64,000 bases of DNA from the NCBI GenBank assembly GCA_044229845.1, contig JBGASG010000011.1, positions 1 to 64,000 of the forward strand, written 5' to 3'. Shown piece after piece: positions 14,486 through 63,554 of the stretch. Under the pieces are notes generated by a model that worked only from the letters and a program-made list of their open reading frames with translations, was not told the DNA's origin and did no database searches. The stretch is from Candidatus Obscuribacteraceae bacterium. GTDB taxonomy: Bacteria > Cyanobacteriota > Vampirovibrionia > Obscuribacterales > Obscuribacteraceae. The translations under genes were made by a program, and so were the position numbers. Positions within the stretch are counted from its first letter, which is position 1. Each line of letters opens with the position of its first letter.

Positions 14486-14501
14486 TGGCCCGTTAGGCTG
14501 A
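14486..14501. promoter_or_regulatory. Island palindromic box (TGGCCC-GTTA-GGCTGA)
   Basis: Partial match to TCAKCC-N4-GGMTGA, 78 bp upstream of the response regulator start, in the divergent HK/RR intergenic region. Confidence 0.55.
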
Positions 14502-14579
14502 CTTGTCGCGGCTTGTCAAACCCCGGCGCTTGCAAGTATCGGTATGCTTTAATTCTCCATGACCGTGGGAGTGTCAACT

Positions 14580-15308
14580 ATGACAACTGACAACTCGGAA
14601 GACTCCATTATCAAAGTGGTCCTGGTAGAGGATCACCTGCTTACACGCATCGGGCTGAAAACCGTCATAGAACGCACGCCTGACATTCGCGTGATTGGCG
14701 AAGCCGAAAACGGCGAAGAAGCCGTGCAAAAAGTAAAAGAGTTAAAGCCGGACGTCGTATTAATGGACGTCGGCATGCCGATCATGGACGGTATCGAGGC
14801 TTCTAAACTGATCTCCAGCAGCACCGACGGCGTCGGTATTATTATGCTCACTTCTCATGATAACGAACGCGATATTTTTGCTTCTCTAGCGGCCGGAGCC
14901 TCCGGGTATTGCTTGAAAGACGTAGAACCGGAGCGTCTTTACACCGCCATTCGCAGCGTGCAGAAAGGTGACAGTTGGCTTGATTCGGCGATAGCGGCGA
15001 AGGTGCTCAAACAACAATCTGCCGTGCCCCACCCCGCACCGGCTGCGGGCAGCCCGACCGGAGCCGGAAGCACAGGCTCGGGTCCCGACGTGACGAAAGC
15101 ACAGCAAGGATTGCCGGAGCCTCTGTCGCCCCGCGAGTTGGAAGTGCTGAACCTTCTGGTTGAAGGACTTTCCAATCAAGAGATAGCCGACAAACTGATC
15201 ATTTCGCTAGCGACCGCTAAAACGCACGTTCGCAACATTCTGAACAAGCTGGCCGTCGATGACCGCACCCAGGCGGCCGTTCACGCAATGCGGCGCGGAC
15301 TGGTCTAA
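14580..15308 (+). CDS. NarL/LiaR-family DNA-binding response regulator
   Basis: REC domain (VEDH, LMDVGMP, LTSHD, YCLKD) and LuxR HTH LSPRELEVL..GLSNQEIA..TAKTHVRNILNKL..DRTQAA. Confidence 0.96.
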   Translation: MTTDNSEDSIIKVVLVEDHLLTRIGLKTVIERTPDIRVIGEAENGEEAVQKVKELKPDVVLMDVGMPIMDGIEASKLISSSTDGVGIIMLTSHDNERDIFASLAAGASGYCLKDVEPERLYTAIRSVQKGDSWLDSAIAAKVLKQQSAVPHPAPAAGSPTGAGSTGSGPDVTKAQQGLPEPLSPRELEVLNLLVEGLSNQEIADKLIISLATAKTHVRNILNKLAVDDRTQAAVHAMRRGLV

Positions 15309-15342
15309 GCACTCCCTCAATACGTCCTTTGACACACCGAAG

Positions 15343-15358
15343 TCAGTCGTAAGGTTGA
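15343..15358. promoter_or_regulatory. Island palindromic box (TCAGTC-GTAA-GGTTGA)
   Basis: Motif match 80 bp upstream of the USP start at 15439. Confidence 0.65.
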
Positions 15359-15438
15359 TTACGGCAGGCACTGCCTGTGCGACATTGGAATGGTGACGCA
15401 TGGCGTCGGTGCAGTTCTATGCCGCAGAGGTTGATCAA

Positions 15439-15951
15439 ATGAAAGTCCTGGTTCCGGTCGAAGATAAAGAATTCGGACAACACATCGTCGATTACATCAT
15501 CACTTGCAAATGGCCGGCGGACACAGAGTTTTGTGTATTCAACGCGATAGATCCCAACCGCCTCGATCATTTTGCGGAAATCTCATTTGGCGAGTTTCTG
15601 GAAGAAGTAGCAACTCAAGAGCGAGCCGACGCGCAGAGACTAGTCGCTCTGATAGTCGGACAGTTGCGCGACTCCATGAAAAACGCCGTAATCACCACCA
15701 AGGTCGTCGAAGGACATCCCAAAGACGAGGTTCTGCGCGCCGCTAAAGAATGGCCGGCCGACCTGATTGTCATCGGCTCTCATGGCAGAAACGCCGTGCA
15801 GAGATTTCTGCTCGGAAGCGTGTCGATGGCGGTGATCGGCGCTGCACCGTGCTCAGTGCTGCTCGTCAGGGCCAAAAACACTGCCGCGCCAGTCGCCGTT
15901 GAGAAACAAGAAGCCACCGCCACCAGTGGCAAAATGCACATCATTATTTAG
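15439..15951 (+). CDS. Universal stress protein
   Basis: MKVLVPVE start; G-x2-G-x9-GS motif (IGSHGRNAVQRFLLGSVS); APCSVLLVR. Confidence 0.93.
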   Translation: MKVLVPVEDKEFGQHIVDYIITCKWPADTEFCVFNAIDPNRLDHFAEISFGEFLEEVATQERADAQRLVALIVGQLRDSMKNAVITTKVVEGHPKDEVLRAAKEWPADLIVIGSHGRNAVQRFLLGSVSMAVIGAAPCSVLLVRAKNTAAPVAVEKQEATATSGKMHIII

Positions 15952-15964
15952 AGCGAGTTGGAAA

Positions 15965-17375: not shown

Positions 17376-17414
17376 ACAGCCCAGAGGATGATCGCAGAGC
17401 CGTCTTTAGGACGA
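17376..17414. promoter_or_regulatory. Tandem island boxes (ACAGCC-CAGA-GGATGA; GCCGTC-TTTA-GGACGA)
   Basis: Boxes at 17376-17391 and 17399-17414; the first ends 83 bp upstream of the USP start at 17475. Confidence 0.65.
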
Positions 17415-18467: not shown

Positions 18468-18530
18468 TCCACCATGCGGATGACTCAAGTTTCACACCTT
18501 CAGCAGAACATTGATCAGCCCTTAGGGGGA
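18468..18530. promoter_or_regulatory. Two island boxes (TCCACC-ATGC-GGATGA; TCAGCC-CTTA-GGGGGA)
   Basis: 18468-18483 and 18515-18530; the second ends 73 bp upstream of the USP start at 18604. Confidence 0.65.
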
Positions 18531-22802: not shown

Positions 22803-22818
22803 TCCTCCTTTTGGTTGA
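22803..22818. promoter_or_regulatory. Island palindromic box (TCCTCC-TTTT-GGTTGA)
   Basis: Between divergent ppsA (82 bp away) and the hydrogenase operon (54 bp away). Confidence 0.6.
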
Positions 22819-27436: not shown

Positions 27437-28788
27437 TGGCAGAAGCAGAAAGAAAAACCATCTATATCCCAGAGATTTCGCGGGTCGAAGGACACGCGGC
27501 TGTCGATGTGGTAATCGAGAATGGATGCGTCAAAGAGGTAAAACTGGACGTTTTCGAAGGCACCAGATTTTTCGAGCAAATCGTTGTCGGTCACAAGTTT
27601 GACGAAATAGCCCATCTCACCTCGCGTGTTTGCGCCATCTGCTCCACCGGTCACGTCATTGCCGCCGTGCGAGCCATCGAAACGATCTTTTCACTACAGC
27701 CAAACCGCCGCACCGAGCTGTACAGAGAACTGATGCATCTGGGCATGATCATCGAATCGCACGCAACACACATTTACGCCTTAGCGCTGCCGGATTTTCT
27801 GAACACACCGGATTTGGTGTCATTCGCTACAGGACATCCTGACAGATTCGCCGAATGGACGTTGCTGCGCAATCTGGGCGCTTCCATTCAGACAGCCATC
27901 GGTGGTCGCCCATTTCACCCCGTCAATCTGCACGTAGGCGGTCTCTCCTTTTATTCGCCGGCGGAAGACATCCAACACTTCACTGACTCTTGTAAGCAAG
28001 CATTGCCGGTTGCCGAATCGGTCTGTCGGCTGCTTTTGGAATTCAAACCAAGAGTGGCGCGCACCACGCAACCTGTGTTTCTCGCTCTCATACCAGATAG
28101 CGGCAACTATGGTTTCTTCGGACAGAAAGTACGTTGCAGCGCCGGCTGGGAAGCAGACATTCAGTCTTATCCCGACTACTTGATGGAACATTCGGTGCCG
28201 TACAGCCACGCAAAAAAATCCGCGGCTCGCGGGCAATCTTTGATGGTGGGCTCGATGGCGCGGCTGGCGTTATTTGGAGATCGCTTGGGAGGCAGAGCCA
28301 GGGAGCTCTTTGTCGAGAGTCCACTGGCGGATTCTGATACCAATACACTCTGGAACAACCTCGCTCAAGCAATCGAAGTTGTATATGCGCTGGAGAGAGT
28401 GCCGCAGATCATCGCTGAGATCGAAAGCCTGCCGTCCAGCATCACAACGCAAGAGCCGGTCACCGGCTGCCGGCAAGCGGGCTGGGCCGCCGGCGCTGTA
28501 GAGTGCCCGCGCGGCACGCTCTATCACTCTTACGAGTTGGATGCTGAAGGCACCATATTGCGAGCCGACATGATTACCCCATCCGCACAAAACACTGCAC
28601 GCATCGAGCTGGACATCAAAGAAGTCGTCGAGAACGAGCAGAACAACACTGACGCAACTGACTCGAACAGCCTGCAGAAGCAGCTAGAAACACTTGTAAG
28701 AGCCTACGACCCCTGCAACACCTGCGCCACGCACATGGTGCAAATCACTCATGTCCCGCCGGAGCAACTCGCTGCTCCTGATCGTTGA
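27436..28788 (+). CDS. hydA: Group 3b [NiFe]-hydrogenase alpha (large, catalytic) subunit
   Basis: ISRVEGH, RFFE, L1 SRVCAICSTGH, ECPRGTLYH, L2 RAYDPCNTCATH followed by a C-terminal cleavage extension. Confidence 0.95.
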   Translation: MAEAERKTIYIPEISRVEGHAAVDVVIENGCVKEVKLDVFEGTRFFEQIVVGHKFDEIAHLTSRVCAICSTGHVIAAVRAIETIFSLQPNRRTELYRELMHLGMIIESHATHIYALALPDFLNTPDLVSFATGHPDRFAEWTLLRNLGASIQTAIGGRPFHPVNLHVGGLSFYSPAEDIQHFTDSCKQALPVAESVCRLLLEFKPRVARTTQPVFLALIPDSGNYGFFGQKVRCSAGWEADIQSYPDYLMEHSVPYSHAKKSAARGQSLMVGSMARLALFGDRLGGRARELFVESPLADSDTNTLWNNLAQAIEVVYALERVPQIIAEIESLPSSITTQEPVTGCRQAGWAAGAVECPRGTLYHSYELDAEGTILRADMITPSAQNTARIELDIKEVVENEQNNTDATDSNSLQKQLETLVRAYDPCNTCATHMVQITHVPPEQLAAPDR

Positions 28789-29251
28789 CGGCTATTTGCC
28801 GATTAGTCATTTTTTTGAGTCTCTTTTTCTGCTTCAGTTTTACAACTTCCACAGAGCATGGAGCATCATGAACCACAGCCTCGGCGACACTGCCCAGAAC
28901 GGCGTGCTCAAAGCCCTGGCGTCCATGCGAGCCAATGACGATAAGATCGGCATCCCATTCCCTGGCCACTTGAGCTATTCGATTGCGCGCATACCCCTGT
29001 TCCAGCCTGGTTTCCACCACGACTCCAGTGTCAGGTCCGCTCAGTTGACTGTAGCGCTCAACTGCTTTGGCCAAAATTTTTGTTTGCGAGTCTATCACTT
29101 CGCCCGGCACGAATAGTCCGTAAGCCGGCGCCAGAGGCTCAGCCACCGAAAGAATTAAAATCTGCGAACCCGCCGGCCATTGACGCTGTGCCACTTTGTC
29201 CAGCGCCATTTGGCTGCACTGAGAGTTGTCGATGGCAATCAAAATCTTCAT
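28745..29251 (-). CDS. Universal stress protein
   Basis: MKILIAIDNS, WP.G, ADLIVIGSHGRQG…LGSVAEAV..APCSVEVV. Confidence 0.93.
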   Translation of the reverse strand: MKILIAIDNSQCSQMALDKVAQRQWPAGSQILILSVAEPLAPAYGLFVPGEVIDSQTKILAKAVERYSQLSGPDTGVVVETRLEQGYARNRIAQVAREWDADLIVIGSHGRQGFEHAVLGSVAEAVVHDAPCSVEVVKLKQKKRLKKMTNRQIAVNDQEQRVAPAGHE

Positions 29252-29371
29252 GGCTGCACTCCGCAGGGACCGATTGGTTATGCATCCAGTTTCCGATTTT
29301 TTTCGCCGACGGGCATCCTTCAAGTTAGGTATCTCTCTTGTGAAGCTGAATAGACTTCAGGCATTTGTCAA

Positions 29372-29387
29372 TCATCCTAAAGGATGA
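29372..29387. promoter_or_regulatory. Perfect island palindromic box TCATCCTAAAGGATGA
   Basis: 7-2-7 palindrome between the divergent USP and rhodanese genes (79 bp from the rhodanese ATG); identical copy at 44774. Confidence 0.8.
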
Positions 29388-29466
29388 GTCAAGGATCAAT
29401 CTTCGTGTGCATGCGCCGGTTGAAAAGGAATTCGATAATTGCTTGCAGGGATAAAGTAGGTTTCTC

Positions 29467-29988
29467 ATGAAGTTCGACCGCATCACCGTCAACAACGTCT
29501 ACAGTGCACTTAAAGAAGACGCCACCAGCTGCGATCTGGTCGACGTGCGCGACTTGAGCGATTTTCTCGATGAGCACATCGAAGGCAGCGTCAACGTGCC
29601 CCTGATGCACTTGACGAAAAAGTCGGCGGCGATTTCCAGAAACAAGCCTGTCTATCTAGTCTGCACCAATGGCAAGCTGGCGACAGACGCGGCGGAAACC
29701 CTGCGTGGACAGGGTTTCGAAAATGTCTATGTAATGGCGGGCGGATTGCTGGCCTGGAATGCGCAGGGTTTTCCGGTCAAACACGGAAGACATAGCTGGC
29801 TCTACAAACGGGAAGGACGCATAGCAGCAGGGCTGACCATCTTGCTGTTCGCGTTGATATGCTGCGACGGCAGCTGGAAAGCGGCAATCGTGCCTGGCAT
29901 TTTTGCCACCGTGCTGATCGCCTCCGCCTTCGCCGATCTGGTCTGGGCATGGTTGTGCCCAGCCGCCCCTGAAGAGAGGAAGGTCTGA
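29467..29988 (+). CDS. Rhodanese-domain membrane protein (YgaP/DUF2892-like C-terminus)
   Basis: LVDVR..F..HIEGS, active-site VCTNGKLA, GGLLAW, two C-terminal TM segments. Confidence 0.88.
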   Translation: MKFDRITVNNVYSALKEDATSCDLVDVRDLSDFLDEHIEGSVNVPLMHLTKKSAAISRNKPVYLVCTNGKLATDAAETLRGQGFENVYVMAGGLLAWNAQGFPVKHGRHSWLYKREGRIAAGLTILLFALICCDGSWKAAIVPGIFATVLIASAFADLVWAWLCPAAPEERKV

Positions 29989-29990
29989 CC

Positions 29991-30485
29991 ATGAAAGTAC
30001 TGGTGCCGCTGGACGACGCCCAATTGCTAGAACAAGTTGTCGAATTTATCATTGCGCAGAACCTCCCAGCGGAGACTCACTTTCGGTTATTGCATGTAAT
30101 TGAGTTCCAGCCGGACGAAGTGGCGCTGAGCTGTTCCTCCGAGGTGCACGTTTTCTTGCAGCAGCAGACTGAAGCGGCTGAAGGCCTGCTAACCAGTGCC
30201 GAAAAGCTAATAGTCAAGCATTACCCGCGCGCGTCGTGCACTCTGTCTGTTGTGCAGGGACTGCCGGTGGAGTCTATTCTGGAAGCAGCAACTGAATGGC
30301 AGCCGGATCTGCTTGTCATCGGCAGCCACAATCGGAAAGGGTTGGCGCACTTCTTCCTCGGTAGCGTCGCTGAAGCGGTATCAAAAAGCTGCAACTGCTC
30401 TGTTGCCCTGATCAGGCGCAAGGAAAGCCGGCTCGCCACGCCCTCAACGGCAGTAGAACTGGACACCCGCCCGATTGCATTCTAA
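29991..30485 (+). CDS. Universal stress protein
   Basis: MKVLVPLD; DLLVIGSHNRKG..FFLGSVAEAV. Confidence 0.92.
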   Translation: MKVLVPLDDAQLLEQVVEFIIAQNLPAETHFRLLHVIEFQPDEVALSCSSEVHVFLQQQTEAAEGLLTSAEKLIVKHYPRASCTLSVVQGLPVESILEAATEWQPDLLVIGSHNRKGLAHFFLGSVAEAVSKSCNCSVALIRRKESRLATPSTAVELDTRPIAF

Positions 30486-30547
30486 CGCGGGCGGTTAGCC
30501 TCTCAGATTTGTTACCATTTACCGGCACCTGAATAGGCGACCGGGAA

Positions 30548-32284
30548 ATGCAACCCGACAGCTTTTATACAAGCGATGAATTCGGTCCGGACGATATAGC
30601 CCTGCGTAAGCGCTGGCTGAATTTTACGGACGAGGATGAGGCTCTTTTGCGAGACATCCACCCTCTTATGAGGGAGAGCGTCGATCCTCTGATCGACGAT
30701 ATGTATGCGCACTTTCTCTCATTTCCGGAAACGTCGGCATTTTTTCCGGACGAACAAACTCTCAGGCGGGCACAGGAAGCACAAAAGCAATACTTCCTGC
30801 GCCTGACAGCCGGCAACTACGACGAGGACTATGTCAAAGACAGGCTGCGCGTAGGCACCACGCACTACAGTATAGGATTGGACCCCAAGTGGTACTTGGG
30901 TGCTTACAACCGCATTCTCAACTGGATGAGGCGCCTTGTCGCCAAGAAGTACAAGAATAATTTTGAGAAGTATGCCCAGACAGTAGCGGCTCTCTCTCGG
31001 GTAATTTTCTTTGACATGGGATTAGCCATAGATTCTTACTTCGTTGCCAAAGAACGCGCGGCCAGAGAACAGGCTCATGCTCTCAGCGCACTGGAAACCG
31101 AACGACGGGTCACAAAGAGCATTCTCGAAGACGCGCCGGTAGGTCTGGTACGGCTGGACCGCAACCTTCGCGTAGCCGAGTGCAATCCGGAGTTCGCCGA
31201 AATGCTGGAATTGCCGAAAGGCAAACAGCCAATCAACGAATTGCTTGCCGATCTGGCACCACAATTGTCACTGGCAGAATTTCAAAAAGTGCTGGAGATG
31301 GACGAACCTTACCGCGCCACGGCAGAACCTTTGTCGCTTTCAAGCTCGTCGGCAGTCGCTTACTACGACCGCGCTATCTGGCCGGTCAAGGATAAGGACG
31401 GGCAAACACTGGCCTTGCTTGCCATTTTTTCCAGCGCCAACGATCGGGTCTTGTTACAGCAACAGCGCGAGGATTTTGTCGCCACTCTCACGCACGACCT
31501 GAAAACACCGATTTTGGCAGCCAACCGAGCAATCAAACTTTTGATGGACGGTGACTTCGGTCCGGTGCAGGAATCTCAGACCCGCATACTGGAGACCATT
31601 CATCAAAGCAACGAAGCTCTGTACAAGCTGGTGCAGACACTCCTGGACGTATATCGGTACGACAGCGGCGCCAAAAAACTCTTGCTGGCGGAGCACGATG
31701 TAGCTTCCATGGTGAAACAACTGGTGAGCGAGCTGGAGCCCCTGGCTAAGACCAAAAGCGTTGGTGTCTCGGCAATACTCCCGGAAGCACCATATAAGGT
31801 GTTATGCGATGCAGAAGAGTTGCGGCGCGTATTACAAAACCTGGTCGACAATGCTCTCAAATTCACGCCCTCCGGCGGCAGTATCAACATCACGATGCAC
31901 CAGGCACCACCGGTTACCGAAATACAGGTAGCCGACACGGGAAAAGGCATCTCAGAAACTGACAAACCAAAGCTCTTTCAAAGATTTTGGCAGGCGGCGG
32001 GCAGCGGTAGATACTATGCTTCAACCGGACTGGGTCTTTACCTTTGTCGAAAAATCGTCGAACTGCACGGCGGTCGCATCGGCTGTCAGAGCCAACTGGG
32101 AACAGGCAGTACGTTCACTTTTACAATCGACCCCTCGCACATCACAGAAAAAGTTCGCGACGATTCCCGAAGTGAGAGCGCGGAAGGCGCCGGTGAGAGC
32201 GCGGAAGGCGCCGGTGAGAGCGCGGAAGGCGCCGGTGAGAGCGCGGAAGGCGCCGGTGAGAGCGCGGAAGGCGCCGGCGAGTAA
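30548..32284 (+). CDS. Globin-coupled sensor histidine kinase (protoglobin-PAS-HisKA-HATPase)
   Basis: Sensor globin (MYAHF, QKQYF, RVGTTHYSIGLDPKWYLGAY), PAS (ILEDAPVGLV..CNPEF), DFVATLTHDLKTP, NLVDNALKF, DTGKGI, GLGL. Confidence 0.93.
   Translation: MQPDSFYTSDEFGPDDIALRKRWLNFTDEDEALLRDIHPLMRESVDPLIDDMYAHFLSFPETSAFFPDEQTLRRAQEAQKQYFLRLTAGNYDEDYVKDRLRVGTTHYSIGLDPKWYLGAYNRILNWMRRLVAKKYKNNFEKYAQTVAALSRVIFFDMGLAIDSYFVAKERAAREQAHALSALETERRVTKSILEDAPVGLVRLDRNLRVAECNPEFAEMLELPKGKQPINELLADLAPQLSLAEFQKVLEMDEPYRATAEPLSLSSSSAVAYYDRAIWPVKDKDGQTLALLAIFSSANDRVLLQQQREDFVATLTHDLKTPILAANRAIKLLMDGDFGPVQESQTRILETIHQSNEALYKLVQTLLDVYRYDSGAKKLLLAEHDVASMVKQLVSELEPLAKTKSVGVSAILPEAPYKVLCDAEELRRVLQNLVDNALKFTPSGGSINITMHQAPPVTEIQVADTGKGISETDKPKLFQRFWQAAGSGRYYASTGLGLYLCRKIVELHGGRIGCQSQLGTGSTFTFTIDPSHITEKVRDDSRSESAEGAGESAEGAGESAEGAGESAEGAGESAEGAGE
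32172..32276. repeat. 21-bp coding tandem repeat x5 (GTGAGAGCGCGGAAGGCGCCG)
   Basis: Five perfect contiguous copies encoding (ESAEGAG)5 at the kinase C-terminus. Confidence 0.95.
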
Positions 32285-32298
32285 CCACGTATCGGTCG

Positions 32299-32757
32299 CT
32301 ACAGATATGGCTGCAGATGCTGCAACATGCAGTCCATAACGAGCGGGGCAAAGTGACCGCAACCAATAGGATCATCGACAGCCGCATGCGGCTTGTCTTC
32401 GAATTCCTGCCGGGCCGCCACCAGGCAGGACCGCACTTTATTGATGATACTCTCCACCTTGCTGCTCATTGCGTCAGAGCCAGGCTTGATGCCGCGCTTC
32501 ACCAAAGTAGACTCAATAACAGCCTTGGCCGCTTGCAGAGCCTGGCATGACGCTATGCACGCAGGTTGATCTGGCGAATGCTCCAGCAGTCCAAAATCCC
32601 GGGCGCTGTCTAACAGCGCCGCCGCGCAATTGTTGCGGTCCCGGACCAGGCGTTCAAGTACCGCCAACCGGGCATTTGGATAACGAAGACACATGCGGAC
32701 CAGCCCGTGAAGTAAAGCACAATTCAGTCTCTCACTCCCCGCGCCTGAGAGCATCAT
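32299..32757 (-). CDS. Hypothetical helical protein
   Basis: Fills the gap between the kinase and hypF; likely start ATG 32757 (longer ORF overlaps hypF). Confidence 0.5.
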   Translation of the reverse strand: MMLSGAGSERLNCALLHGLVRMCLRYPNARLAVLERLVRDRNNCAAALLDSARDFGLLEHSPDQPACIASCQALQAAKAVIESTLVKRGIKPGSDAMSSKVESIINKVRSCLVAARQEFEDKPHAAVDDPIGCGHFAPLVMDCMLQHLQPYL

Positions 32758-32769
32758 CCCTGCGGAGGG
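32754..32769. promoter_or_regulatory. Island box (TCATCC-CTGC-GGAGGG)
   Basis: 84 bp upstream of the hypF start. Confidence 0.5.
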
Positions 32770-41980: not shown

Positions 41981-41996
41981 TCATCCTGTCGACTTA
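41981..41996. promoter_or_regulatory. Island box (TCATCC-TGTC-GACTTA)
   Basis: Between the divergent P-type ATPase and USP genes. Confidence 0.55.
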
Positions 41997-42639: not shown

Positions 42640-43568
42640 GCATTGCGGATACTACCAGGACGGGACAATTAGCCGCGGCCCGTCGTGTGTTCGCCCTCAC
42701 ACTGCTGCTCAATCTGTCTGTGGCTTTAGCCAAACTACTCTGGGGTTTTGCCACTCATACACTGAGCATGGTGGCAGATGGGTTTCATTCGCTCCTCGAT
42801 GCCTCATCCAACATCGTCGGGATCATTGGCTTGAGTATTTCGACCAAGCCTCCCGATGCCGGTCACCCTTACGGACACAGGAAATTTGAAGCACTGGCAG
42901 CGATATTCATATCGTTCTTGATGTTTCTGTCCAGCTTCGAAATTCTCCGAGAGTGCTTAAATCGGCTGCTGGCGACCAGTGCCGACAAGCCGGACGTCAC
43001 GATCGGCAGTTATGCAATCATGCTGGTCACCATGGTCGTAAATATCGGCGTCTCTCAGTATGAGCGGCGGCAAGCCAAAGCCTTGCGAAGCGAACTATTG
43101 CTGGCCGATTCCATGCACACATTGAGTGATGTATATGCAACTGTCGGCGTGCTCATCTCCTTAGCGGCGATTCAAATGCAGATGACAGTGGTCGATGTGG
43201 CGGCAGCCATATTGATCGTCGTGATTATTTTCAAGGCCGGCTTTGGAATTATTCTCGTGCATCTGAACAGCCTCGTTGATGCTGCCGGCCTCGACGCTGT
43301 GGAGATTGAGAGGCTGGCAGTGTCAGTTCCCGGTGTGCTCGGCTGTCATAAAATACGCAGCCGCGGCATGAGCGACTGCGTATTCGTAGATATGCATTTA
43401 GTCGTTGAAGAAAGTCTGTCAGTAGCCGCCGCTCACGAGATCAGCCAGAAAGTGGAAGCCCTCCTGCTCAACTCAGACCGAGGCATAGTCGATGTCGTCG
43501 TCCATATAGAGCAGGAGCAGCCTGAATCGAAAGGCGCTTGCCACGAAGAGACGACACCATCCAATTAG
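42636..43568 (+). CDS. Cation diffusion facilitator (FieF-like) transporter
   Basis: ADGFHSLLD, HPYGHRKFE, ADSMHTLSD, C-terminal dimerisation domain (AHEIS..VE, VHIE). Confidence 0.93.
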   Translation: MSIADTTRTGQLAAARRVFALTLLLNLSVALAKLLWGFATHTLSMVADGFHSLLDASSNIVGIIGLSISTKPPDAGHPYGHRKFEALAAIFISFLMFLSSFEILRECLNRLLATSADKPDVTIGSYAIMLVTMVVNIGVSQYERRQAKALRSELLLADSMHTLSDVYATVGVLISLAAIQMQMTVVDVAAAILIVVIIFKAGFGIILVHLNSLVDAAGLDAVEIERLAVSVPGVLGCHKIRSRGMSDCVFVDMHLVVEESLSVAAAHEISQKVEALLLNSDRGIVDVVVHIEQEQPESKGACHEETTPSN

Positions 43569-43867
43569 TCGGGCATGTTTTCCAGGTTTTCCAGGCTGCC
43601 ACTGACTATCACATCATAGAGTCCGACAGCCAGTAGTCCTGCGGCACCGCCGACCGAACCGAAAGCAAGAGCAGCCATAATTACGCCTGTGAGCGTCATG
43701 TCCGGCAGCGGTCCGAAAACGAAGGGCACTGCCATCGCAGTAAAAACGAATCCGAGAATAATGCCGGCATTAAAAAGAACGTGCAGCGGCAGAGCCTTGC
43801 GTCGCACCGGCGCTACGGTCGTGGCGGTCCTGACTGTGCCGTGGTTGATTGTAAACATACGAGTCAC
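43565..43867 (-). CDS. Hypothetical two-TM protein
   Basis: Two hydrophobic helices; GAGAGG before GTG. Confidence 0.6.
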   Translation of the reverse strand: MTRMFTINHGTVRTATTVAPVRRKALPLHVLFNAGIILGFVFTAMAVPFVFGPLPDMTLTGVIMAALAFGSVGGAAGLLAVGLYDVIVSGSLENLENMPD

Positions 43868-43924
43868 CTCTCATCCAAATGCATCCTACGTAACTGATTT
43901 TCTCGATTTCACCCGCGAGAAACA

Positions 43925-43940
43925 TCGTCCGCAAGATGGA
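43925..43940. promoter_or_regulatory. Weak island box (TCGTCC-GCAA-GATGGA)
   Basis: Between the divergent TM hypothetical and the desaturase. Confidence 0.4.
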
Positions 43941-43994: not shown

Positions 43995-44789
43995 ATGTGG
44001 CTTTTTATTTGTGTTTTTCTGATTGCGTACATGTATCACGGACTTGGTATCACGCTCGGTTATCATCGTTTGCTCTCGCATCGAGCGTACAAGGCTCCGA
44101 AGTGGCTTGAATACTTGATAGTGCTCGGTGGTTACCTGGCTATGGAAGGCTCGCCGATTTTCTGGGTATCGACCCACCGCCTGCATCACCGGTTCTCAGA
44201 CAGACCCGGCGATCCTCACTCGCCGGTGGATGGGCTCTGGCACGCCTTTGCCGGCTGGATGATCAAACCGCGGGTTTTTGTTTCTTCAGAGGAAAGCAGA
44301 CGACTGGCACCAGACCTCTACCGCGACCCGATCTACAGAGCTTTGCATTGCGCCCACAGCGGCATGGAAGGCTGGCTGTGTTTGACGATCTCCGCGATAT
44401 TCAGACTGGGGATCTTCCTTCTATTCGGTCCCGTTGTCTTTTTCGCTCATTTGCTTGGAAGTTTGCTGGCATTTTCGGCGCCGCTGATCGTCAATCTTTT
44501 CTGCCACATGCCCTGGCTTGGCTACGAGAGCCATGCCTGCGGCGACCAGAGTCGCAATGTGCCGGTGGTGGCATTACTTTCCTTCGGCGAAGGATGGCAC
44601 AACAATCATCACGCGTTTCCAGGCTCGGTGCGATTCGGGCTAAACCCACGCGAATTCGATATGACCTTCCAGGTAGCCCGTCTCTTGCAGGCGGTGGGAT
44701 TGATCCGCGACCTGGCAATCCCTCAAATCGTGCCGGTCAGCCAGGTGGAAGAAAGCAAACCGCTGGTGAAAAATCATCCTAAAGGATGA
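43995..44789 (+). CDS. Delta-9-type acyl-CoA/acyl-lipid desaturase
   Basis: His boxes GYHRLLSH, HRLHH..SD..GDPHSP, GEGWHNNHH. Confidence 0.93.
   Translation: MWLFICVFLIAYMYHGLGITLGYHRLLSHRAYKAPKWLEYLIVLGGYLAMEGSPIFWVSTHRLHHRFSDRPGDPHSPVDGLWHAFAGWMIKPRVFVSSEESRRLAPDLYRDPIYRALHCAHSGMEGWLCLTISAIFRLGIFLLFGPVVFFAHLLGSLLAFSAPLIVNLFCHMPWLGYESHACGDQSRNVPVVALLSFGEGWHNNHHAFPGSVRFGLNPREFDMTFQVARLLQAVGLIRDLAIPQIVPVSQVEESKPLVKNHPKG
44774..44789. promoter_or_regulatory. Perfect island palindromic box TCATCCTAAAGGATGA
   Basis: Overlaps the desaturase stop codon; 88 bp upstream of the PaaA-like gene. Confidence 0.8.
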
Positions 44790-47711: not shown

Positions 47712-47727
47712 TCATCCTTGAGAGGTA
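47712..47727. promoter_or_regulatory. Island box (TCATCC-TTGA-GAGGTA)
   Basis: 78 bp upstream of the resolvase-like gene; near-identical to the box at 52885. Confidence 0.65.
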
Positions 47728-52884: not shown

Positions 52885-52900
52885 TCATCCCTGAGAGGTA
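52885..52900. promoter_or_regulatory. Island box (TCATCC-CTGA-GAGGTA)
   Basis: Between the divergent MBL-rhodanese (64 bp away) and NRAMP genes. Confidence 0.65.
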
Positions 52901-54535: not shown

Positions 54536-54551
54536 TCAGCCTTTAGGATGA
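54536..54551. promoter_or_regulatory. Island palindromic box TCAGCC-TTTA-GGATGA
   Basis: Full consensus match upstream of the second histidine kinase; weaker copy at 54487-54502. Confidence 0.72.
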
Positions 54552-54667: not shown

Positions 54668-56446
54668 GTGTTAAGCGCAAAATACAATCCGTTCCGCGCT
54701 CTCACTTCGACACTGCGAGGTCGACTAGTCCTGCTCGTCTGTCTGGCTACATTGCCTGCGGTTCTGTTTACGCTTTATATGGCAGAAGGTGAACGGACGG
54801 CAACCTTGAAGCGGCATGAGGACGAAGGACAGCAAATTCTGAGAACCATTTCTCGCGATCATCTATACCAGATTGCCGGGGCCAAGAGTCTTTTGCAATG
54901 GCTGGCAGACAAGCTGGAAAATGACGAGAGTATTTCTTTTCTGCGTGACGCCAATTATCTCAACGCCTTTCTCTCAGGCTACCCGCAATTGGGAAACATT
55001 GCCGTCCTTGAGCCCAACGGAAATGTTTACGCCAGTGCTCGACCGCTAACTGAGCCGATTAACATGTTCAATTACGAGGCTATTCAGCGAGCCCTGAAAT
55101 CCCATGAGATTGAAACAGGCGGATATGCAATCGGTCCGATTGTAAAACGCCCGCTTTTGCACCTCTCGAAAGCCGTACGAGATAAAAGAGGAAACGTACG
55201 TTGGGTTGTCTTTGTGGCGCTCGATCTGGAGTACTTAAGCAAGCTGTGTGAACAGGCACAACTACCCGGCGAGCAAGTGCTTCTAATTGTCGATCGCGAT
55301 GGAACTGTACTGGCACACTCCAAAGCCGAGCACTCGACAGAGTACGCCACAGGTAAGCGAGTTCGTGAATTAGCTGAGCACGAGAACTCTCAAGGCGGTG
55401 ATCAAGTTCGACAGCCGGGCGCCATTGTTTTTAAACAAACGCCTTTGCAGGTGCCCGGTCTTTCGCTGGCAGTTTCCATTCCCACCAAACGAATACACGC
55501 CGAGGCCAATGCATCGTTTATTCGCATGACCACTATTCTTTCACTCCTGACTCTGTCTACAGTAGCTTCGGTTGTCTTTCTCGAAGAATTTTCGTTGCTC
55601 CGTTCTTTGCGATATCTGTCCACATGTACCCGTCGCTTTGGAGATGGAGACTATTCGGTGCGCATGAAAATTCCTCGCGGCTACGGCGAGCTGGAGCGCA
55701 TGGCCGATGTTTTCAACACCATGGCTGAACAGCTGGCGCAAAGGCATCAGGAAATCATAGCCTCCAACGCTCACTTCGACAAACTAACTCGTCACCTTCA
55801 AATTGCTCGCGAATCGGAATGCTTGAGAATTGCTCGGGACCTGCATGATGAGGTCGGGCAGGTATTGACCAGCATTAAGTTGGATTTGAGTTGCTTTCAG
55901 CCGCACTGCACTCAAAAGGATACGCTGCCCTGTGAAAACCACGTCGATCTGATCAAGACCAAGCTCGACGACCTGATTTCGTTTATCCGCACAATCGCAT
56001 CAGACTTGCGTCCACCAGTCCTCGATCGGATGGGGCTGGTAAAAGCCATTCAACTTCTGGCAAGAACCATCGAACGACAGAGCGACTTGATGATCGAAGT
56101 CGAAGCGCAGGTGGAAGAACCCCTCGATTGGCTGACATCAATCACCGTTTATCGGATTGTGCAAGAATCGCTGACAAATGTAGTAAGACACGCCCAGGCA
56201 ACTGAGGCAACCGTACGATTATCCACGGATGGGAGTCATATCCAGTTGAAAGTGCAAGACAACGGCAAGGGGTTTGTCGAGCCACAGAGCAACGAGCGAG
56301 AGGCACTGGGCATTCTGGGCATGCGAGAGAGGACTCGTTTGATAAATGGCACGTTCCTGATCTACAGCGGGATCGGCCGCGGCACCACTGTTGAGGCGTC
56401 TATTCCACAAGTGCAGCCTAACGAAAATGCGCATCTTGCTAGCTGA
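54668..56446 (+). CDS. Membrane sensor histidine kinase (Cache-like, HAMP, HisKA_3)
   Basis: Two TMs around an extracytoplasmic domain, HAMP (GELERMADVFNTMA), RIARDLHDEVGQ, QESLTNVVRHA, DNGKGF, GMRER. Confidence 0.93.
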   Translation: MLSAKYNPFRALTSTLRGRLVLLVCLATLPAVLFTLYMAEGERTATLKRHEDEGQQILRTISRDHLYQIAGAKSLLQWLADKLENDESISFLRDANYLNAFLSGYPQLGNIAVLEPNGNVYASARPLTEPINMFNYEAIQRALKSHEIETGGYAIGPIVKRPLLHLSKAVRDKRGNVRWVVFVALDLEYLSKLCEQAQLPGEQVLLIVDRDGTVLAHSKAEHSTEYATGKRVRELAEHENSQGGDQVRQPGAIVFKQTPLQVPGLSLAVSIPTKRIHAEANASFIRMTTILSLLTLSTVASVVFLEEFSLLRSLRYLSTCTRRFGDGDYSVRMKIPRGYGELERMADVFNTMAEQLAQRHQEIIASNAHFDKLTRHLQIARESECLRIARDLHDEVGQVLTSIKLDLSCFQPHCTQKDTLPCENHVDLIKTKLDDLISFIRTIASDLRPPVLDRMGLVKAIQLLARTIERQSDLMIEVEAQVEEPLDWLTSITVYRIVQESLTNVVRHAQATEATVRLSTDGSHIQLKVQDNGKGFVEPQSNEREALGILGMRERTRLINGTFLIYSGIGRGTTVEASIPQVQPNENAHLAS

Positions 56447-57056
56447 CGATCACTCGATGTTCCGCGCCGGACTGCGCCGGATAATCGAAGACTGCCGACC
56501 TGGTGTTTGTATCGTAGAAGCCGCTTCGTGTGATGAGTGCTTGCAGATTGCCCGTGCCGGCAAGTTGGATTTGATAATTCTGGATGTGTCCATGCATTCC
56601 CAAAACAGTCTGGGCATCTTGCCTGAAATCAAGAATTGTCAGCCTCATACACCGATCATGATGCTCAGTATGCATGCCGACACTGAGTTTGTTGTGCAGG
56701 CACTGCGAGCCGGAGCGTCGGGCTATTTGACAAAGGAGCACACTGCAGAGGAGCTGATTCGAGCAATCGACACTGCCCTCTCCGGGCAGCGCTACGTCAG
56801 TTCATCGCTGGCAGAAAACCTGGTTGATCTTATCGCTGGCGGCACATCGGACAAGCCGCACGAAGCCCTATCGGTACGCGAGCGAGAAGTATTCTTGTTA
56901 ATCGCAGCCGGAAAATCACTGTCCGAAATTGCCAGGCTTCTCTCGTTGAGCACCAAGACGGTAAGCACATACAGAACCAGAATCTTGGAAAAAATGGCGC
57001 TCGGTTCCAATGCCGAGTTGATGCGATATGCACTACGCAACAAACTGGTTGACTGA
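56427..57056 (+). CDS. NarL/UvrY-type response regulator
   Basis: MRILLADDH, LDVSM, LSMH, HTH LSVREREV..KTVSTYRTRILEKM. Confidence 0.95.
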   Translation: MRILLADDHSMFRAGLRRIIEDCRPGVCIVEAASCDECLQIARAGKLDLIILDVSMHSQNSLGILPEIKNCQPHTPIMMLSMHADTEFVVQALRAGASGYLTKEHTAEELIRAIDTALSGQRYVSSSLAENLVDLIAGGTSDKPHEALSVREREVFLLIAAGKSLSEIARLLSLSTKTVSTYRTRILEKMALGSNAELMRYALRNKLVD

Positions 57057-58664: not shown

Positions 58665-58680
58665 TACCTAATAAGGATGA
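58665..58680. promoter_or_regulatory. Island box (TACCTA-ATAA-GGATGA)
   Basis: Reverse complement TCATCC-TTAT-TAGGTA; 83 bp upstream of the PRTase ATG. Confidence 0.62.
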
Positions 58681-59524: not shown

Positions 59525-59540
59525 TCATCCGAAGGGATGA
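59525..59540. promoter_or_regulatory. Perfect island box TCATCC-GAAG-GGATGA
   Basis: Extends to GATCATCC…GGATGATC; 79 bp upstream of the ORF at 59620. Confidence 0.8.
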
Positions 59541-60030: not shown

Positions 60031-60055
60031 GGTCACGTTCGATAACCACGGATGC

Positions 60056-61060: not shown

Positions 61061-62400
61061 GAGTTGTTCGTCCTCACTGAGGTGGTGGGCAACAATTCGA
61101 AATTCGAAGTACCTGACGCAGGTTTCAAATGCGGAGCTACGACTTGAGCAATGGACTCAAGCTCATTTTCAGCCAGAGATTGGAAAGGTGTTGGTTCCCA
61201 ACCCAGATAAAGAGAAAGACGGCTGTCATCGCCGGTTTCCAGGCAGGCGAATATGCGGCAACGAGGTACTGATACCAGCGCTGCACCCATGAGTAAAAAG
61301 ACGAAGGATGCATGCACAAGCGGCAACCCCGGATCGTATTTGTACTGCAAAGTGGTGACGGCAACTGGGGCTTCGTAAGCAATTTTCAACGCATCAAGAG
61401 TGACAGTTTGTTTTAGTTTCAGGTCCGCAAGGAAGTTTGCCGACGGCTGCTCATCCAGTACTCCGTATATCTGCAAAGACGCGCCGTCGGAAGCAACCAC
61501 AACAACCAGAGAGAGGTCTTTCGAGAGTGAAACCACTCCGGCAAGTGAATTGCCAATTCTCTCAAGCGGCACCTGCGCAAGTTGTTTCCCGAACTTGAGG
61601 GTGACTGCTTTGAGCTGCCAGTCAGCCTGGTAGTAAGTCACACTGTTTACTGTCAACGGATTGTTGACAGAAGTTATGCCTTGCGATCGAAGATGACCGT
61701 GTTTGTCCAGAATCTCCAGTTCTGTTTTCCATTGCTTGGGCTCTCCGGACGGATGATTTTCTCGCCTGGTGTCTTTGATCACCAGCCAGTCTTGCTCAGC
61801 CTTTCCCAGCAGTGGTTGTTGCGCATGAATCGCCGGCACAGACAACCTGGAGCCGACGGTGCCAGAGACACAACCTGAATAACCGCAAGCCGCCGAGAAA
61901 GCTACTCCTCCCAGCAAGAGGAACAGTCCCAGATGTGTGCAGGGGCCGGCCAGGTAACCCATTCGTCCCTTCTCGAAAATGAGCCGGCTTCCCGCGTCGG
62001 TAACTAAGAAGCGGCGGGCTCTCATGAATTTCACCAGTTCCAGTCGACTTTCGACGCTGTCACTTACATCAATCGAGATTGAGTGGGACATAGACGCGAT
62101 TTCTCCTGCGCTCTTACCTCTGCCCGGAATCAGCCTGTGAGTTACGCGAGAACGCTGCCGTGAGACGCTGCAAGCAACGAGATTGAGAAACAGCATACCA
62201 GTGACAAGCAAGAAGAGGCTGGAGCTGAATACTCTATTCAACCCGAGCATCGCTATAATTCTGGCTATAGCGTCGCCGAAGCGGGCACAAAGCTCTTCCT
62301 CATTGATGCTCTGTGGGATGTAGGCACCAGCGAAAACAAGCAGGCACAAAGCCACCATCAAGAGAATTGTCAATTTAAGGGAGGATAGTGAACTCAACAT
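61057..62400 (-). CDS. resB: Cytochrome c biogenesis System II protein Ccs1/ResB
   Basis: LSSLKL..L, IPQ, F.S..F, NL.ACS, H.G, SVNNPL, YQADW, YDPG; start 62400 or 62451. Confidence 0.88.
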   Translation of the reverse strand: MLSSLSSLKLTILLMVALCLLVFAGAYIPQSINEEELCARFGDAIARIIAMLGLNRVFSSSLFLLVTGMLFLNLVACSVSRQRSRVTHRLIPGRGKSAGEIASMSHSISIDVSDSVESRLELVKFMRARRFLVTDAGSRLIFEKGRMGYLAGPCTHLGLFLLLGGVAFSAACGYSGCVSGTVGSRLSVPAIHAQQPLLGKAEQDWLVIKDTRRENHPSGEPKQWKTELEILDKHGHLRSQGITSVNNPLTVNSVTYYQADWQLKAVTLKFGKQLAQVPLERIGNSLAGVVSLSKDLSLVVVVASDGASLQIYGVLDEQPSANFLADLKLKQTVTLDALKIAYEAPVAVTTLQYKYDPGLPLVHASFVFLLMGAALVSVPRCRIFACLETGDDSRLSLYLGWEPTPFQSLAENELESIAQVVAPHLKPASGTSNFELLPTTSVRTNNS

Positions 62401-62428
62401 AGCTTCTCGCACAGCAGCTGTTCCGTGT

Positions 62429-63478
62429 TCAAGAGCGGCCGGTCGCGGCAAAACGGCGCACTACATATGGTGTCCAACGCCGGTCGAGGATTTCAGCGAT
62501 GATTTTGTGAGCCCCGGCGCATAAAGCCGCACGTTCCGCCAGATTCGACTCGACTACTTGAGCCAGATCGTCGACCGTGTATAGTTTGGTCTCTGAGAAA
62601 CCGCCGATTGCGGGATCTACATTGCGCGGCACCGACAGATCTATCACCACACCCGGCACAGTTGCCTGTTTCTCAAGCTCTGCCCGAGTCAGCACGAACT
62701 CCGGCGCCGCCGTGGTCACGATAACAACGTCGGCTCCAGCTGATAACTCATGCCTCTCTTCGTACGAATGACAGAGAGAGAGCCGCCCCTCCACATTCAG
62801 CTCCTGCATACCCAGAAGACCCTCGCCGCTTCGATTGACGACCTGAATGGATGGACAGTCGCGCGAGGAAAGCAGCTGCTTCGCGCACATCTGGGCGGCT
62901 CTTCCTGCTCCCACCAGCAAGAGAGTGCGACTCTTCAGCCCGCCGAAATTCTGGCGTGCAATTTCGATGGCAGCAGCGCCTGTAGAAACAGCTCCGCTGC
63001 TAATTTTGGTTTCTGTGCGCACACGCTTGCCACAGTGCAGAGCTAAATCAAATAAACGTCTCAATACAGGTCCGGCGCAGTCAGCATCGAGAGCCGCCTG
63101 GTAAGCATCCTTTACCTGCGCCAGAATTTGCCCTTCGCCCACCACCATGCTCTCCAGACCACTGGCAACCCTGCACAGATGAGCTACAGCCTGCTCATCC
63201 GTCTTCACCATACTCGGTGCAAGATCGTGATGATCAGATACTGCCTGCACTGCCTGGAAGAACGATTTGACCTGTGAAGTTCCTTCCTCGCGTCCCGTTG
63301 TGACTGCATAAACCTCAAAGCGATTGCATGTCGCGATGATTGCTGATTCATTTATCGCCGGCAAAGACTGGAGATGCTTGAGAGCTTGATGCAGGCAGGA
63401 AGGCGGGATGGTCAGCCGCTCGCGTACGGCGACCGGCTGTGATTTGTAATCGAGTCCGCAAGCGATCAGGTGAGGCAC
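62429..63478 (-). CDS. hemA: Glutamyl-tRNA reductase (short form)
   Basis: PV.VRE, ATCNRFE, SGLESMVVGEGQILAQVK, GAG, DLSVPRNVDP; 349 aa. Confidence 0.93.
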   Translation of the reverse strand: MPHLIACGLDYKSQPVAVRERLTIPPSCLHQALKHLQSLPAINESAIIATCNRFEVYAVTTGREEGTSQVKSFFQAVQAVSDHHDLAPSMVKTDEQAVAHLCRVASGLESMVVGEGQILAQVKDAYQAALDADCAGPVLRRLFDLALHCGKRVRTETKISSGAVSTGAAAIEIARQNFGGLKSRTLLLVGAGRAAQMCAKQLLSSRDCPSIQVVNRSGEGLLGMQELNVEGRLSLCHSYEERHELSAGADVVIVTTAAPEFVLTRAELEKQATVPGVVIDLSVPRNVDPAIGGFSETKLYTVDDLAQVVESNLAERAALCAGAHKIIAEILDRRWTPYVVRRFAATGRS

Positions 63479-63538
63479 TTTTATCCACCAACCTAAGACA
63501 TTCAGCTTTAAAATAGCAATAGTTTCCAGACGGTAACC

Positions 63539-63554
63539 ACAACCGGAAGGCTGA
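63539..63554. promoter_or_regulatory. Island box (ACAACC-GGAA-GGCTGA)
   Basis: 60 bp upstream of the hemA start. Confidence 0.6.

Follow-up and report, generated by a model that had tools for sequence, protein, structure and literature searches.

Several described systems frame the element analysed here. DosR (DevR), the dormancy regulator driven by DosS and DosT in mycobacteria, and NarL, of the NarXL/NarQP systems, act mainly as activators; the Dev box, the consensus of DosR, is GGGACT-WW-AGTCCC (a string that turned up for two papers), and the heptamer of NarL is TACYYMT. In the LiaFSR/CesSR/VraSR systems of Firmicutes, LiaR also acts mainly as an activator, from the box T(X)4C(X)4G(X)4A, of which Lys177 and Thr178 read the C and the G while Lys174 touches non-consensus bases in the LiaR-DNA structures (PMC4482077); the lactococcal CesR box is TCAGHCTnnAGDCTGA (PMC4447274). 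Tandem boxes have been described for DevR (PMC3177182), and a low-oxygen-induced gene cluster of M. smegmatis, msmeg_3932-3955, includes a copy of devR (PMC2799521). The present analysis concerns a recurrent 16-bp palindrome, TCAKCC-N4-GGMTGA, in bases 1-64000 (the window) of the 143,479-bp contig C20, one of 22 contigs in a 5.16-Mb assembly from Candidatus Obscuribacteraceae (labelled G000). The host lineage, Obscuribacterales, is a non-photosynthetic sister lineage of cyanobacteria, and the palindrome recurs in an island, spanning ~14 kb to ~128-134 kb of C20, whose genes serve anaerobic life and exposure to nitric oxide (NO).

We lean, though not by much, towards a model in which the palindrome is the operator of RR_A, a NarL/LuxR-type response regulator encoded at 14580..15308 (+), a globin-coupled histidine kinase (30548..32284, +) is its sensor, and the island would be activated when oxygen falls or NO appears. 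The kinase would sense O2, NO or carbon monoxide (CO) and thereby control how far RR_A is phosphorylated; a dimer of RR_A would occupy the palindrome, joined at some promoters by a second dimer on a weaker site 22-24 bp away; and the phosphorylated regulator would activate island promoters at low oxygen or with NO. That RR_A is the binder we infer from its LiaR-like recognition helix, the LiaR-type box, the co-occurrence of regulator and motif across genomes, and the invariance of the helix. Conserved gene adjacency points to the globin-coupled kinase as the sensor, and activation is suggested by the position of the sites upstream of start codons, by the lack of an adjoining consensus sigma-70 promoter, and by the precedent of LiaR, DosR and NarL as activators. 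We take activation to be about twice as likely as repression.

The palindrome and its probable binder

An earlier sequence-only reading of the window had described 19 copies of the palindrome, four of them perfect or consensus; the sequences given were present at 19/19 coordinates, and all four (29372, 44774, 59525 and 54536) are matches to the strict pattern (TCAKCCNNNNGGMTGA). These four strict matches in the window compare with 0.04 expected, and none of 100 dinucleotide-preserving shuffles reached that number; if as many as two mismatches are allowed, the count rises to 23, compared with 10.6 +/- 2.9 by chance, and was likewise reached by 0/100 shuffles. Genome-wide (5.16 Mb) the strict pattern occurs 10 times, with seven copies on C20, which makes up 2.8% of the genome; those on C20 outside the window lie at 65013, 79847 and 95656. 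A matrix built from the seven strict C20 sites placed its 11 top genome matches all on C20, four of them new (118957, 69483, 126439 and 89518), and these 11 sites form the matrix behind the scores given below. Iterating the matrix on all genome matches made it drift to TCATCG...CGATGA words of coding sequence, and island-trained matrices were used instead.

Enrichment was also strong against real intergenic DNA. In the 4.8 kb of intergenic DNA between 13 and 64 kb of the window, 17 matches score at least 4, where 0.52 would be expected from the intergenic DNA of other contigs; for the whole island the figures are 27 and 1.26. The training set of the matrix consists of island sites that are themselves inside these counts, and the non-training excess is therefore ~16-20. 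Enrichment over background had been set beforehand as a test of the palindrome, and a count of spaced trinucleotide dyads in 79 island and 3,339 other intergenic regions recovered the same motif independently of the proposed pattern: the top 25 dyads were exclusively pieces of ATCATCC-N4-GGATGAT (for example CATCCT, TCA-n10-TGA and ATC-n12-GAT; P down to 9e-13 among 60,907 dyads tested). Aligned, the sites form an 18-bp motif, A-TCATCC-TWWA-GGATGA-T, in which positions 1, 6, 11 and 16 are T, C, G and A in 22/22 strands of the 11-site matrix. Nineteen intergenic regions of C20 hold a site scoring at least 10, seven of them between divergent genes. The operons that follow such sites include those for Usp proteins, the NiFe hydrogenase and its maturation, phosphoenolpyruvate synthase/PPDK, the class III ribonucleotide reductase, nitrate reductase, NO reductase, NnrS, RIC/ScdA, Hcp, rubredoxin and a second two-component system. 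The weak sites are genuine when considered together, and the evidence from sequence supports the view that the motif represents a class of transcription-factor sites upstream of island genes. The first 13 kb of the window, which encode a phosphoketolase, TPR proteins and similar, had been described as devoid of sites, and no match scoring at least 4 was found in the first 13.2 kb (the best scores being 2.9 and 3.4).

RR_A joins a receiver to a C-terminal GerE/LuxR helix-turn-helix (Pfam Response_reg 3e-27, GerE 2e-19), which places it in the NarL/FixJ family, with NarL (1a04) matched at 125 bits. Its best solved relatives are LiaR of E. faecalis (5hev, 161 bits) and VraR of S. aureus, followed by NarL, ChrA and DevR, the last (3c3w) sixth at 110 bits; with KTHV also in common, the LiaR/VraR-like helix proposed for this regulator is borne out. 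The recognition helix, ISLATAKTHVRNILNKL, is invariant in 8/9 aligned orthologues. Equivalents of Lys177 and Thr178 of LiaR are retained (AKTHV) and Lys174 is replaced by Ala, given numbering that assumes a four-residue offset between the chain index and the published residues. The main form of the palindrome has one difference per half-site from the CesR box (T for G at position 4), TCAGCC...GGCTGA variants match that box completely, and the palindrome agrees with the LiaR box at all four fixed positions, which are also those invariant in the 11-site matrix, so that the suggested likeness to a CesR/LiaR-type box is sustained, at least for the consensus sequences as quoted from these sources (PMC4482077, PMC4447274).

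Related genomes link regulator and motif. Among 40 relatives from Obscuribacterales/Melainabacteria (given G labels), 16 carry an RR_A orthologue of 65-75% identity at E<=1e-90, a cut chosen after the gap in the match list was visible; none was found in the sole same-genus genome of the 40, where the best match is 53% identical. Orthologues co-occur with motif clusters: matrix matches of at least 10 number 16 in 116 kb around the orthologue in G024, 6 in 40 kb in G013, 9 in 60 kb in G016, 16 in 100 kb in G014, 5 in 60 kb in G010 and 4 in 17 kb in G017, compared with a baseline of 0.76 per 100 kb for the contigs of G000 other than C20. Ten named loci, from metagenome-assembled genomes labelled Candidatus Obscuribacterales, Ca. 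Obscuribacter or Ca. Melainabacteria and given L labels, hold 29 matches in 182 kb (15.9 per 100 kb), whereas the 70 control loci, centred on NarL-type regulators that are not orthologous and come from other phyla, have 19 in 1.19 Mb (1.6 per 100 kb); the named loci overlap the first set at one locus or more, L048 being the same record as G016. The strict WW-spacer form, TCATCCNWWNGGATGA, has 33 sites in 41 genomes, where its reversed control has 3, and is present in 10/16 orthologue-bearing as against 5/24 other genomes (Fisher P=0.0097, with kin counted though they are not independent).

Targets travel with the regulator to a considerable extent. Site-bearing genes common to at least two genera include those for the PaaA-like protein, NnrS, Hcp, the hyp405-Rieske-cytochrome b operon and hyp257, and also HypF, Usp genes, a phosphoribosyltransferase, a beta-eliminating lyase and hyp343. 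In five genomes without an RR_A orthologue the targets are mostly missing (PaaA-like 1/5, NnrS 0/5, tandem-Usp 1/5), a distribution that suggests joint acquisition and loss of regulator and regulon as one unit. One genome without an orthologue, G003, retains TCATCC plus a degenerate half 66 nt upstream of its PaaA-like gene (contig C18; L127 2338-2353; score 6.5), which may be a decaying site.

The globin-coupled kinase has a protoglobin-PAS-HisKA-HATPase layout (Pfam Protoglobin 6e-41, PAS, HisKA, HATPase_c). Its orthologue directly adjoins the RR_A orthologue in 6/6 of the relatives' neighbourhoods and in 9/10 named loci, where the two genes are divergent; the tenth locus, from a 32% G+C genome, has a 51%-identical regulator and a PAS kinase instead, and a perfect site nonetheless. 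In G000 the site at 29372 is followed by the rhodanese-Usp genes and, 62 bp beyond them, by the globin kinase gene, which may therefore itself be a regulon member. The kinase gene divergent to RR_A in the window (13288..14577, -; Pfam PAS_4, HisKA, HATPase_c) has a core 33% identical to that of the globin kinase, and its true start is probably downstream of the longest-ORF (open reading frame) start. A second two-component system at 54668..57056 (+), with a dCache-HAMP-HisKA_3 kinase and a NarL-type regulator, RR_B (56427-57056), by Pfam, we regard as a target and not as the conserved binder.

Autoregulation of RR_A, which had been suggested from a copy of the palindrome upstream of its gene, did not hold up. 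That copy, TGGCCCGTTAGGCTGA (14486..14501), is weak (score 6.2, with 1.8 equal-or-better positions expected per 51 kb) and probably not conserved: no site scoring at least 1 lies in the intergenic DNA preceding the regulator in any of eight relatives, the best being 0.5 at one locus. In 5/8 loci (L048, L049, L051, L052 and L053) the stretch that separates the globin kinase and regulator genes has a TATAAT-like element (TATAATTAGA and close variants), ~40-60 nt before the regulator start, which looks like a constitutive -10.

Two further observations concern RR_A homologues outside the set above. At five loci, from Actinomycetota and one Gemmatimonadota metagenome-assembled genome, a palindrome TCA(A/G)CCGATCGG(T/C)TGA of the same box architecture lies 3.0-3.2 kb upstream of a regulator homologue with the helix TVK(T/S)HL.H.Y.KL (L084 6914, L088 6918, L104 6831, L107 7023 and L108 6838), which suggests a family-wide link between the helix type TVK(T/S)HL and TCAxCC-N4-GGxTGA boxes. 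Separately, frames of ~270-310 aa at G011:C61:25637-26104 and 26336 and at G019:C3:60244-60735 are 61-64% identical to RR_A over residues 1-165/170 only, and one of them adjoins a strict palindrome; they may combine the same receiver domain with a different output domain.

Direction of regulation and competing explanations

Several observations weigh against RR_A as a globin-driven activator. NarL-type regulators are usually paired with HisKA_3 kinases, and the globin kinase has a HisKA domain; in G000, moreover, it lies 15 kb from RR_A and not beside it. Part of the co-occurrence stems from the choice of regions, because these were picked around the regulator and scored with an island-trained matrix, and 6/16 orthologue-bearing genomes have no strict site while 5/24 others have one. 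Contig C8 encodes a second LiaR-like regulator with a KTHV helix, and the palindrome precedes Rrf2 genes in four genomes (G000 89518; G024:C24:255890/256009; G019:C28:11002; G013:C7:1612), as it would if an Rrf2-family protein were autoregulated. When 42 oriented sites were aligned, no position downstream of the motif was conserved beyond the flanking A/T, and no fixed -10 offset was seen. Finally, AfGcHK and NmpU, two globin-coupled kinases that have been characterised, depend on haem and are active in the O2-bound state (PMC11841059), and with such a kinase repression would fit instead.

The last point opens the most serious alternative, which we consider distinctly less probable than activation yet a real contender: the same parts may work with the opposite sign, an O2-active kinase maintaining phosphorylated RR_A as a repressor of the island in air and releasing it as oxygen falls. 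In Myxococcus an extra, inverting kinase converts the O2-active signal to a hypoxia-on output, in the account cited (PMC11841059), and no inverter kinase was seen beside the kinase-regulator pair in the six neighbourhoods and ten named loci. Geometry would also permit repression, since 5' untranslated regions of 20-40 nt could bring the -35 into overlap with sites that lie 55-90 nt before a start codon; metatranscriptome contigs starting 44-47 nt after the motif, at 15402, 18577 and 22862, would place it at or just upstream of the -35 if their 5' ends are slightly truncated, but contigs cannot reveal RNA ends. Strong repressed promoters would be expected to carry a consensus -35/-10 pair at or beside the sites, and there is none; a scan for consensus sigma-70 promoters over 14-33 kb found seven promoter-like sites against a shuffle mean of 10.2, and none beside the six motif sites there. 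DosR and NarL are, besides, mainly activators from such boxes. The same is reported of LiaR (PMC4482077).

If the binder were not RR_A, the island itself offers candidates in two Rrf2-family (NsrR-like) genes (C20:88987-89427 and 108765-109160), whose products might act as NO-sensing repressors on the palindrome. Sites do lie upstream of classic NsrR-type targets, namely RIC/ScdA-NnrS (65013), Hcp (118957) and the NarK region (106936). We nevertheless judge an Rrf2 operator improbable: four genomes with strict sites, G017 (98% complete, with three strict sites and a local cluster), G010, G009 and G022, yielded no Rrf2 relative at E<=1e-25; the closest orthologues (68-71%) are in G001 and G019, genomes without a strict WW-spacer site; none of the six motif-rich regions around RR_A has a homologue; and most targets (Usp, hydrogenase, PPDK, PaaA-like) are not of NsrR type, with a box that fits the LiaR consensus as quoted (PMC4482077). 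A different LuxR/NarL-type binder seems slightly less probable again. RR_B has the consensus site 54536 upstream of its own operon, which could reflect autoregulation, and three asymmetric TACCT-type half-sites within 7 kb of that operon, but it has no orthologue at E<=1e-45 in the 40 relatives, though motif and targets are conserved there; the paralogue on C8, with its KTHV helix, is 44% identical, distant from every site, and has an orthologue in G001, which lacks a strict WW-spacer site. Least probable of all, and very unlikely, is that the palindrome acts not as a protein site but as an RNA or DNA hairpin (a terminator or attenuator) or a small repeat. Its two 6-bp arms do form a perfect inverted repeat around a 4-nt loop, and some copies directly follow the preceding gene (that at 44774 ends on a stop codon), but variants such as TCAGCC...GGATGA, TCACCC...GGCTGA and TCATTC...GGCTGA break the pairing without compensation, the sequence itself is kept across genomes of 32-56% G+C, no T-run follows, flanks are unique, and sites occur in divergent promoter regions. 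A Crp/Fnr-type binder was also considered and rejected, the genome having a single such gene, on another contig (C6).

Individual sites, promoter geometry and island genes

By individual score, part of the original list of 19 sites stands. Eight (29372, 44774, 54536, 59525, 15343, 17376, 22803 and 18515) lie far above chance, meaning that fewer than 0.5 positions with as high a score would be expected in 51 kb; 32754 is borderline at 0.7; and ten (14486, 17399, 18468, 41981, 43925, 47712, 50211, 52885, 58665 and 63539) are indistinguishable from chance by score alone, with matrix scores below 0 at 43925 and 47712. The two identical consensus copies (TCATCCTAAAGGATGA) are the strict sites at 29372..29387, between a Usp gene (-) and the rhodanese-Usp(-globin kinase) genes (+) at gaps of 79 and 120 nt, and at 44774..44789, 88 nt upstream of the gene for a PaaA-like di-iron protein; the former scores 31.0, which the rest of the genome does not equal, and the latter 32.3, with sites also at PaaA-like orthologues in G016 (24.4) and, in the decayed form noted above, in G003. 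Also strict are TCAGCCTTTAGGATGA (54536..54551; score 25.6), upstream of the second two-component operon and with a weaker site 49 bp further upstream, and TCATCCGAAGGGATGA (59525..59540; 26.3), 79 nt from a 136-aa hypothetical gene and with a secondary site 22 bp on.

Close behind come TCAGTCGTAAGGTTGA (15343..15358; score 15.8, 0.03 expected per 51 kb), which precedes a two-gene Usp operon, at a gap of 80 nt to its ATG at 15439, and is matched in relatives by a site just downstream of RR_A, and TCCTCCTTTTGGTTGA (22803..22818; 14.4), set between a phosphoenolpyruvate (PEP) synthase/PPDK-type gene (-) and a hydrogenase operon (+) comprising HycI, HypB, HypC and four hydrogenase subunits by Pfam, with gaps of 82 and 54 nt. 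Site ACAGCCCAGAGGATGA (17376..17391; 12.4) falls between divergent hypothetical genes and has the weaker partner 17399 at d=23, the hyp343 orthologue in G013 also carrying a site; TCAGCCCTTAGGGGGA (18515..18530; 10.3) lies 73 nt from the ATG at 18604 of a tandem-Usp gene whose G010 orthologue has a site. The weaker TCATCCCTGCGGAGGG (32754..32769; 8.7), 84 nt from the ATG of hypF-hypCDE, corresponds to a site scoring 21.2 at the start of HypF in G024, and the weak candidate TCATCCTGTCGACTTA (41981..41996; 6.2, not above chance alone), between a P-type ATPase gene (-) and a Usp gene (+), to one scoring 14.6 at the ATPase orthologue in the same genome.

The asymmetric form TCATCC-N4-KAGGTA, which had been counted three times, occurs four times in the genome, with three copies at 47.7-58.7 kb of the window. 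These are TCATCCTTGAGAGGTA (47712..47727), a candidate from the pattern count whose status is uncertain because its matrix score is below zero; TCATCCCTGAGAGGTA (52885..52900), a candidate between MBL-rhodanese (-) and Nramp (+) genes at gaps of 64 and 63 nt; and TACCTAATAAGGATGA (58665..58680; score 1.8), upstream of a phosphoribosyltransferase gene whose G016 orthologue has a full palindrome scoring 21.0. Each consists of one GGATGA half and one TACCT(C/A) half, and all three lie within 7 kb of the 54668-57056 operon. Elsewhere, three weak matches on contig C9 (24522, 25760 and 27216; scores 12.5-16.3; TCGTCC/TCAGTC forms) occupy three adjacent intergenic regions near rhodanese, CoA-disulfide-reductase-like rhodanese fusion, ArsR-type regulator and bestrophin-like genes; we set these aside as probably the sites of another regulator or chance.

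The near-fixed distance to the start codon proposed for the sites proves only partly correct. The gap is 73-88 nt for 7/9 window sites scoring at least 8.7, but for only 1/11 strong sites on the rest of C20, where the values are 55, 60, 65, 69, 76, 90, 103, 104, 124, 129 and >180 (some >200) nt; orthologous promoters also vary (PaaA-like 88, 36 and 66 nt in three genomes; NnrS 76 and 161). This variation on C20 and among orthologous promoters argues for a promoter-proximal band without a fixed distance. All 14 gaps in the original list could be reproduced by choosing suitable start codons, nine of which have a Shine-Dalgarno-like sequence and five none; genes were called here as longest ORFs by greedy selection, and start codons are therefore uncertain. 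Among 20 close pairs of sites, seven, from five genomes, consist of a stronger and a weaker site whose starts are 22-24 bp apart: 17376/17399 and 59525/59547 in the window, G013:C12:279358/279382, G014:C49:285081/285105 and 329381/329403, L049 2740/2762, and L054 11295/11318. The arrangement suggests that two dimers may bind at some promoters.

The island as a whole has a broad complement of functions. It encodes a four-subunit NiFe hydrogenase (group-3-like) with HycI and HypABCDEF-type maturation genes, c-type cytochromes, NarGHJI together with a transporter resembling NarK, a quinol NO reductase (qNor), NnrS, RIC/ScdA and Hcp. Also present are seven Usp and two Hsp20 genes, rubredoxin, hemerythrins, an encapsulin, a PEP synthase/PPDK-type enzyme, an acetyl-CoA hydrolase/transferase, the class III ribonucleotide reductase NrdD/NrdG and a P-type ATPase. 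Regulators number two Rrf2 proteins, two extra sigma-70-family factors, four histidine kinases and two NarL-type regulators. High expression of narGH of Ca. Obscuribacter in the anaerobic phase has been reported (PMC9723799).

Gene structure in the island and at its edge shows further peculiarities. The Hcp/prismane gene is interrupted, its N- and C-terminal ORFs (C20:118890-125544) being separated by an IS66 element (with orf2 and a transposase) and by the reverse transcriptase of a group II intron, and its promoter retains the strong site 118957. The NarI ORF (C20:97429-98772, -) has a C-terminal Rieske 2Fe-2S domain and an orthologue of similar length in G024. The phosphoketolase gene XFP adjoins the motif-rich region in four genomes (window 5702-8140, -; G024:C38:141705-144101; G013:C12:265417-267807; G016:C1:608743-611130), and a weak site (score 10.6) lies upstream of it in G016 and none in G000.

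RNA libraries contain parts of the island. Of the words sampled from window 28700-32300, 15-35% occur in metatranscriptomes from sludge and bioreactors, and contigs from four runs of three studies, mostly at least 99% alike, cover Usp, tandem-Usp, PPDK, hydrogenase subunit, rhodanese, globin kinase and sigma factor genes. These data are Logan contigs, which show presence in RNA libraries and are uninformative on regulation, RNA ends or silence; the contig ends at 15402, 18577, 22862, 29453 and 17462 are thus at most upper bounds on starts and no evidence of where transcription begins. The deepest-covered piece in all four runs is a 100-aa hypothetical gene without a Pfam match (43565-43867, -), with contig depths of 69, 126 and 34 in runs X1, X2 and X5 and a mean of ~15 in X4; the X1, X2 and X5 contigs stop at 43867-43883, ~40-55 nt from the weak site 43925.

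Comparison with known systems

No description of two-component regulation or of such a regulon in Obscuribacter was found in Creative Commons-licensed PMC and bioRxiv full text. Melainabacteria/Vampirovibrionia, on which hardly any genetics has been done, would gain their first reconstructed regulon with the one outlined here. It would supply a list of genes, many of them hypothetical, deployed as oxygen runs out, with a bearing on life in sludge that cycles between anoxic and oxic states. It would also provide concrete wiring for a globin-coupled kinase, a class whose direct transcriptional outputs are otherwise known only for the myxobacterial NtrC-type relay (PMC11841059), and would represent the re-use of a LiaR-type DNA-binding domain and box for oxygen and NO control. 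The extreme clustering of the regulon on one stretch of DNA makes it a useful case for studying the movement of regulons between genomes.

Set beside NarXL/NarQP, the system shares the NarL family, a nitrate reductase target and a 7-2-7 inverted layout, and the TACCTCT/TACCTAA half of the three asymmetric sites resembles the NarL heptamer; its main half-site is TCATCCT, however, and its sensor is not NarX-like. AfGcHK of Anaeromyxobacter and NmpU of the Myxococcus NmpRSTU system resemble the present kinase in being protoglobin sensor kinases, with an oxygen-linked regulon that includes a Usp gene, but NmpRSTU works by a multi-step relay to an NtrC-type, sigma-54-dependent regulator, where here a NarL/LiaR-type regulator and a 16-bp palindrome are predicted (PMC11841059). 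Likeness to LiaFSR/CesSR/VraSR takes in the best solved relative of the regulator, the helix KTHV(S/R)NIL, the architecture of the box and secondary adjoining sites, the 22-24 bp pairs recalling the extended footprints of LiaR. Differences lie in the conserved partner, a soluble cytoplasmic protoglobin-PAS-HisKA kinase and not an intramembrane LiaS/VraS-type HisKA_3 kinase, in position 4 of the box (mostly T, not G), in the replacement of LiaR Lys174 by Ala, and in the lack of conserved autoregulation; neither a LiaF-like gene nor envelope-stress genes were seen in the annotated island. Because of its globin-kinase partner and its low-oxygen and NO targets, we regard the system as DosR-like in function and not as an envelope-stress system of the LiaFSR type.

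The resemblance to DosR/DevR-DosS/DosT is one of proposed function. There a NarL-family regulator is driven by haem-based gas-sensing kinases, and here one would be driven by a kinase whose protoglobin domain is predicted to bind haem. In both, regulon members, putative ones here, are clustered; Usp, Hsp20/alpha-crystallin, nitrate respiration and an anaerobic-type ribonucleotide reductase recur among the putative targets, judged here by gene content; tandem boxes occur, as described for DevR; and the operator is palindromic with a central CT-WW-AG, the only part common to the two consensus sequences. Unlike DosS and DosT, the predicted sensor here has a protoglobin and not a GAF domain, and HisKA in place of HisKA_3; the outer half-site is TCATC and not GGGA; RR_A is nearer to LiaR/VraR (161 bits) than to DevR (110 bits), so that neither orthology nor a Dev box ties it to DosR; no autoregulatory site is conserved; and the lineage is Melainabacteria, not Actinobacteria. 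Since kinase, LiaF, autoregulation and regulon set it apart from LiaFSR, and orthology and box from DosR, the system is best described as a NarL-family two-component regulon. We see an even chance that the whole represents a convergent reinvention of the DosR dormancy regulon of mycobacteria, in which a globin-based O2/NO kinase would be wired directly to a LiaR-type regulator and, through one 16-bp palindrome, to ~20 promoter regions in a block of >100 kb that is gained and lost as a 'regulon island'.

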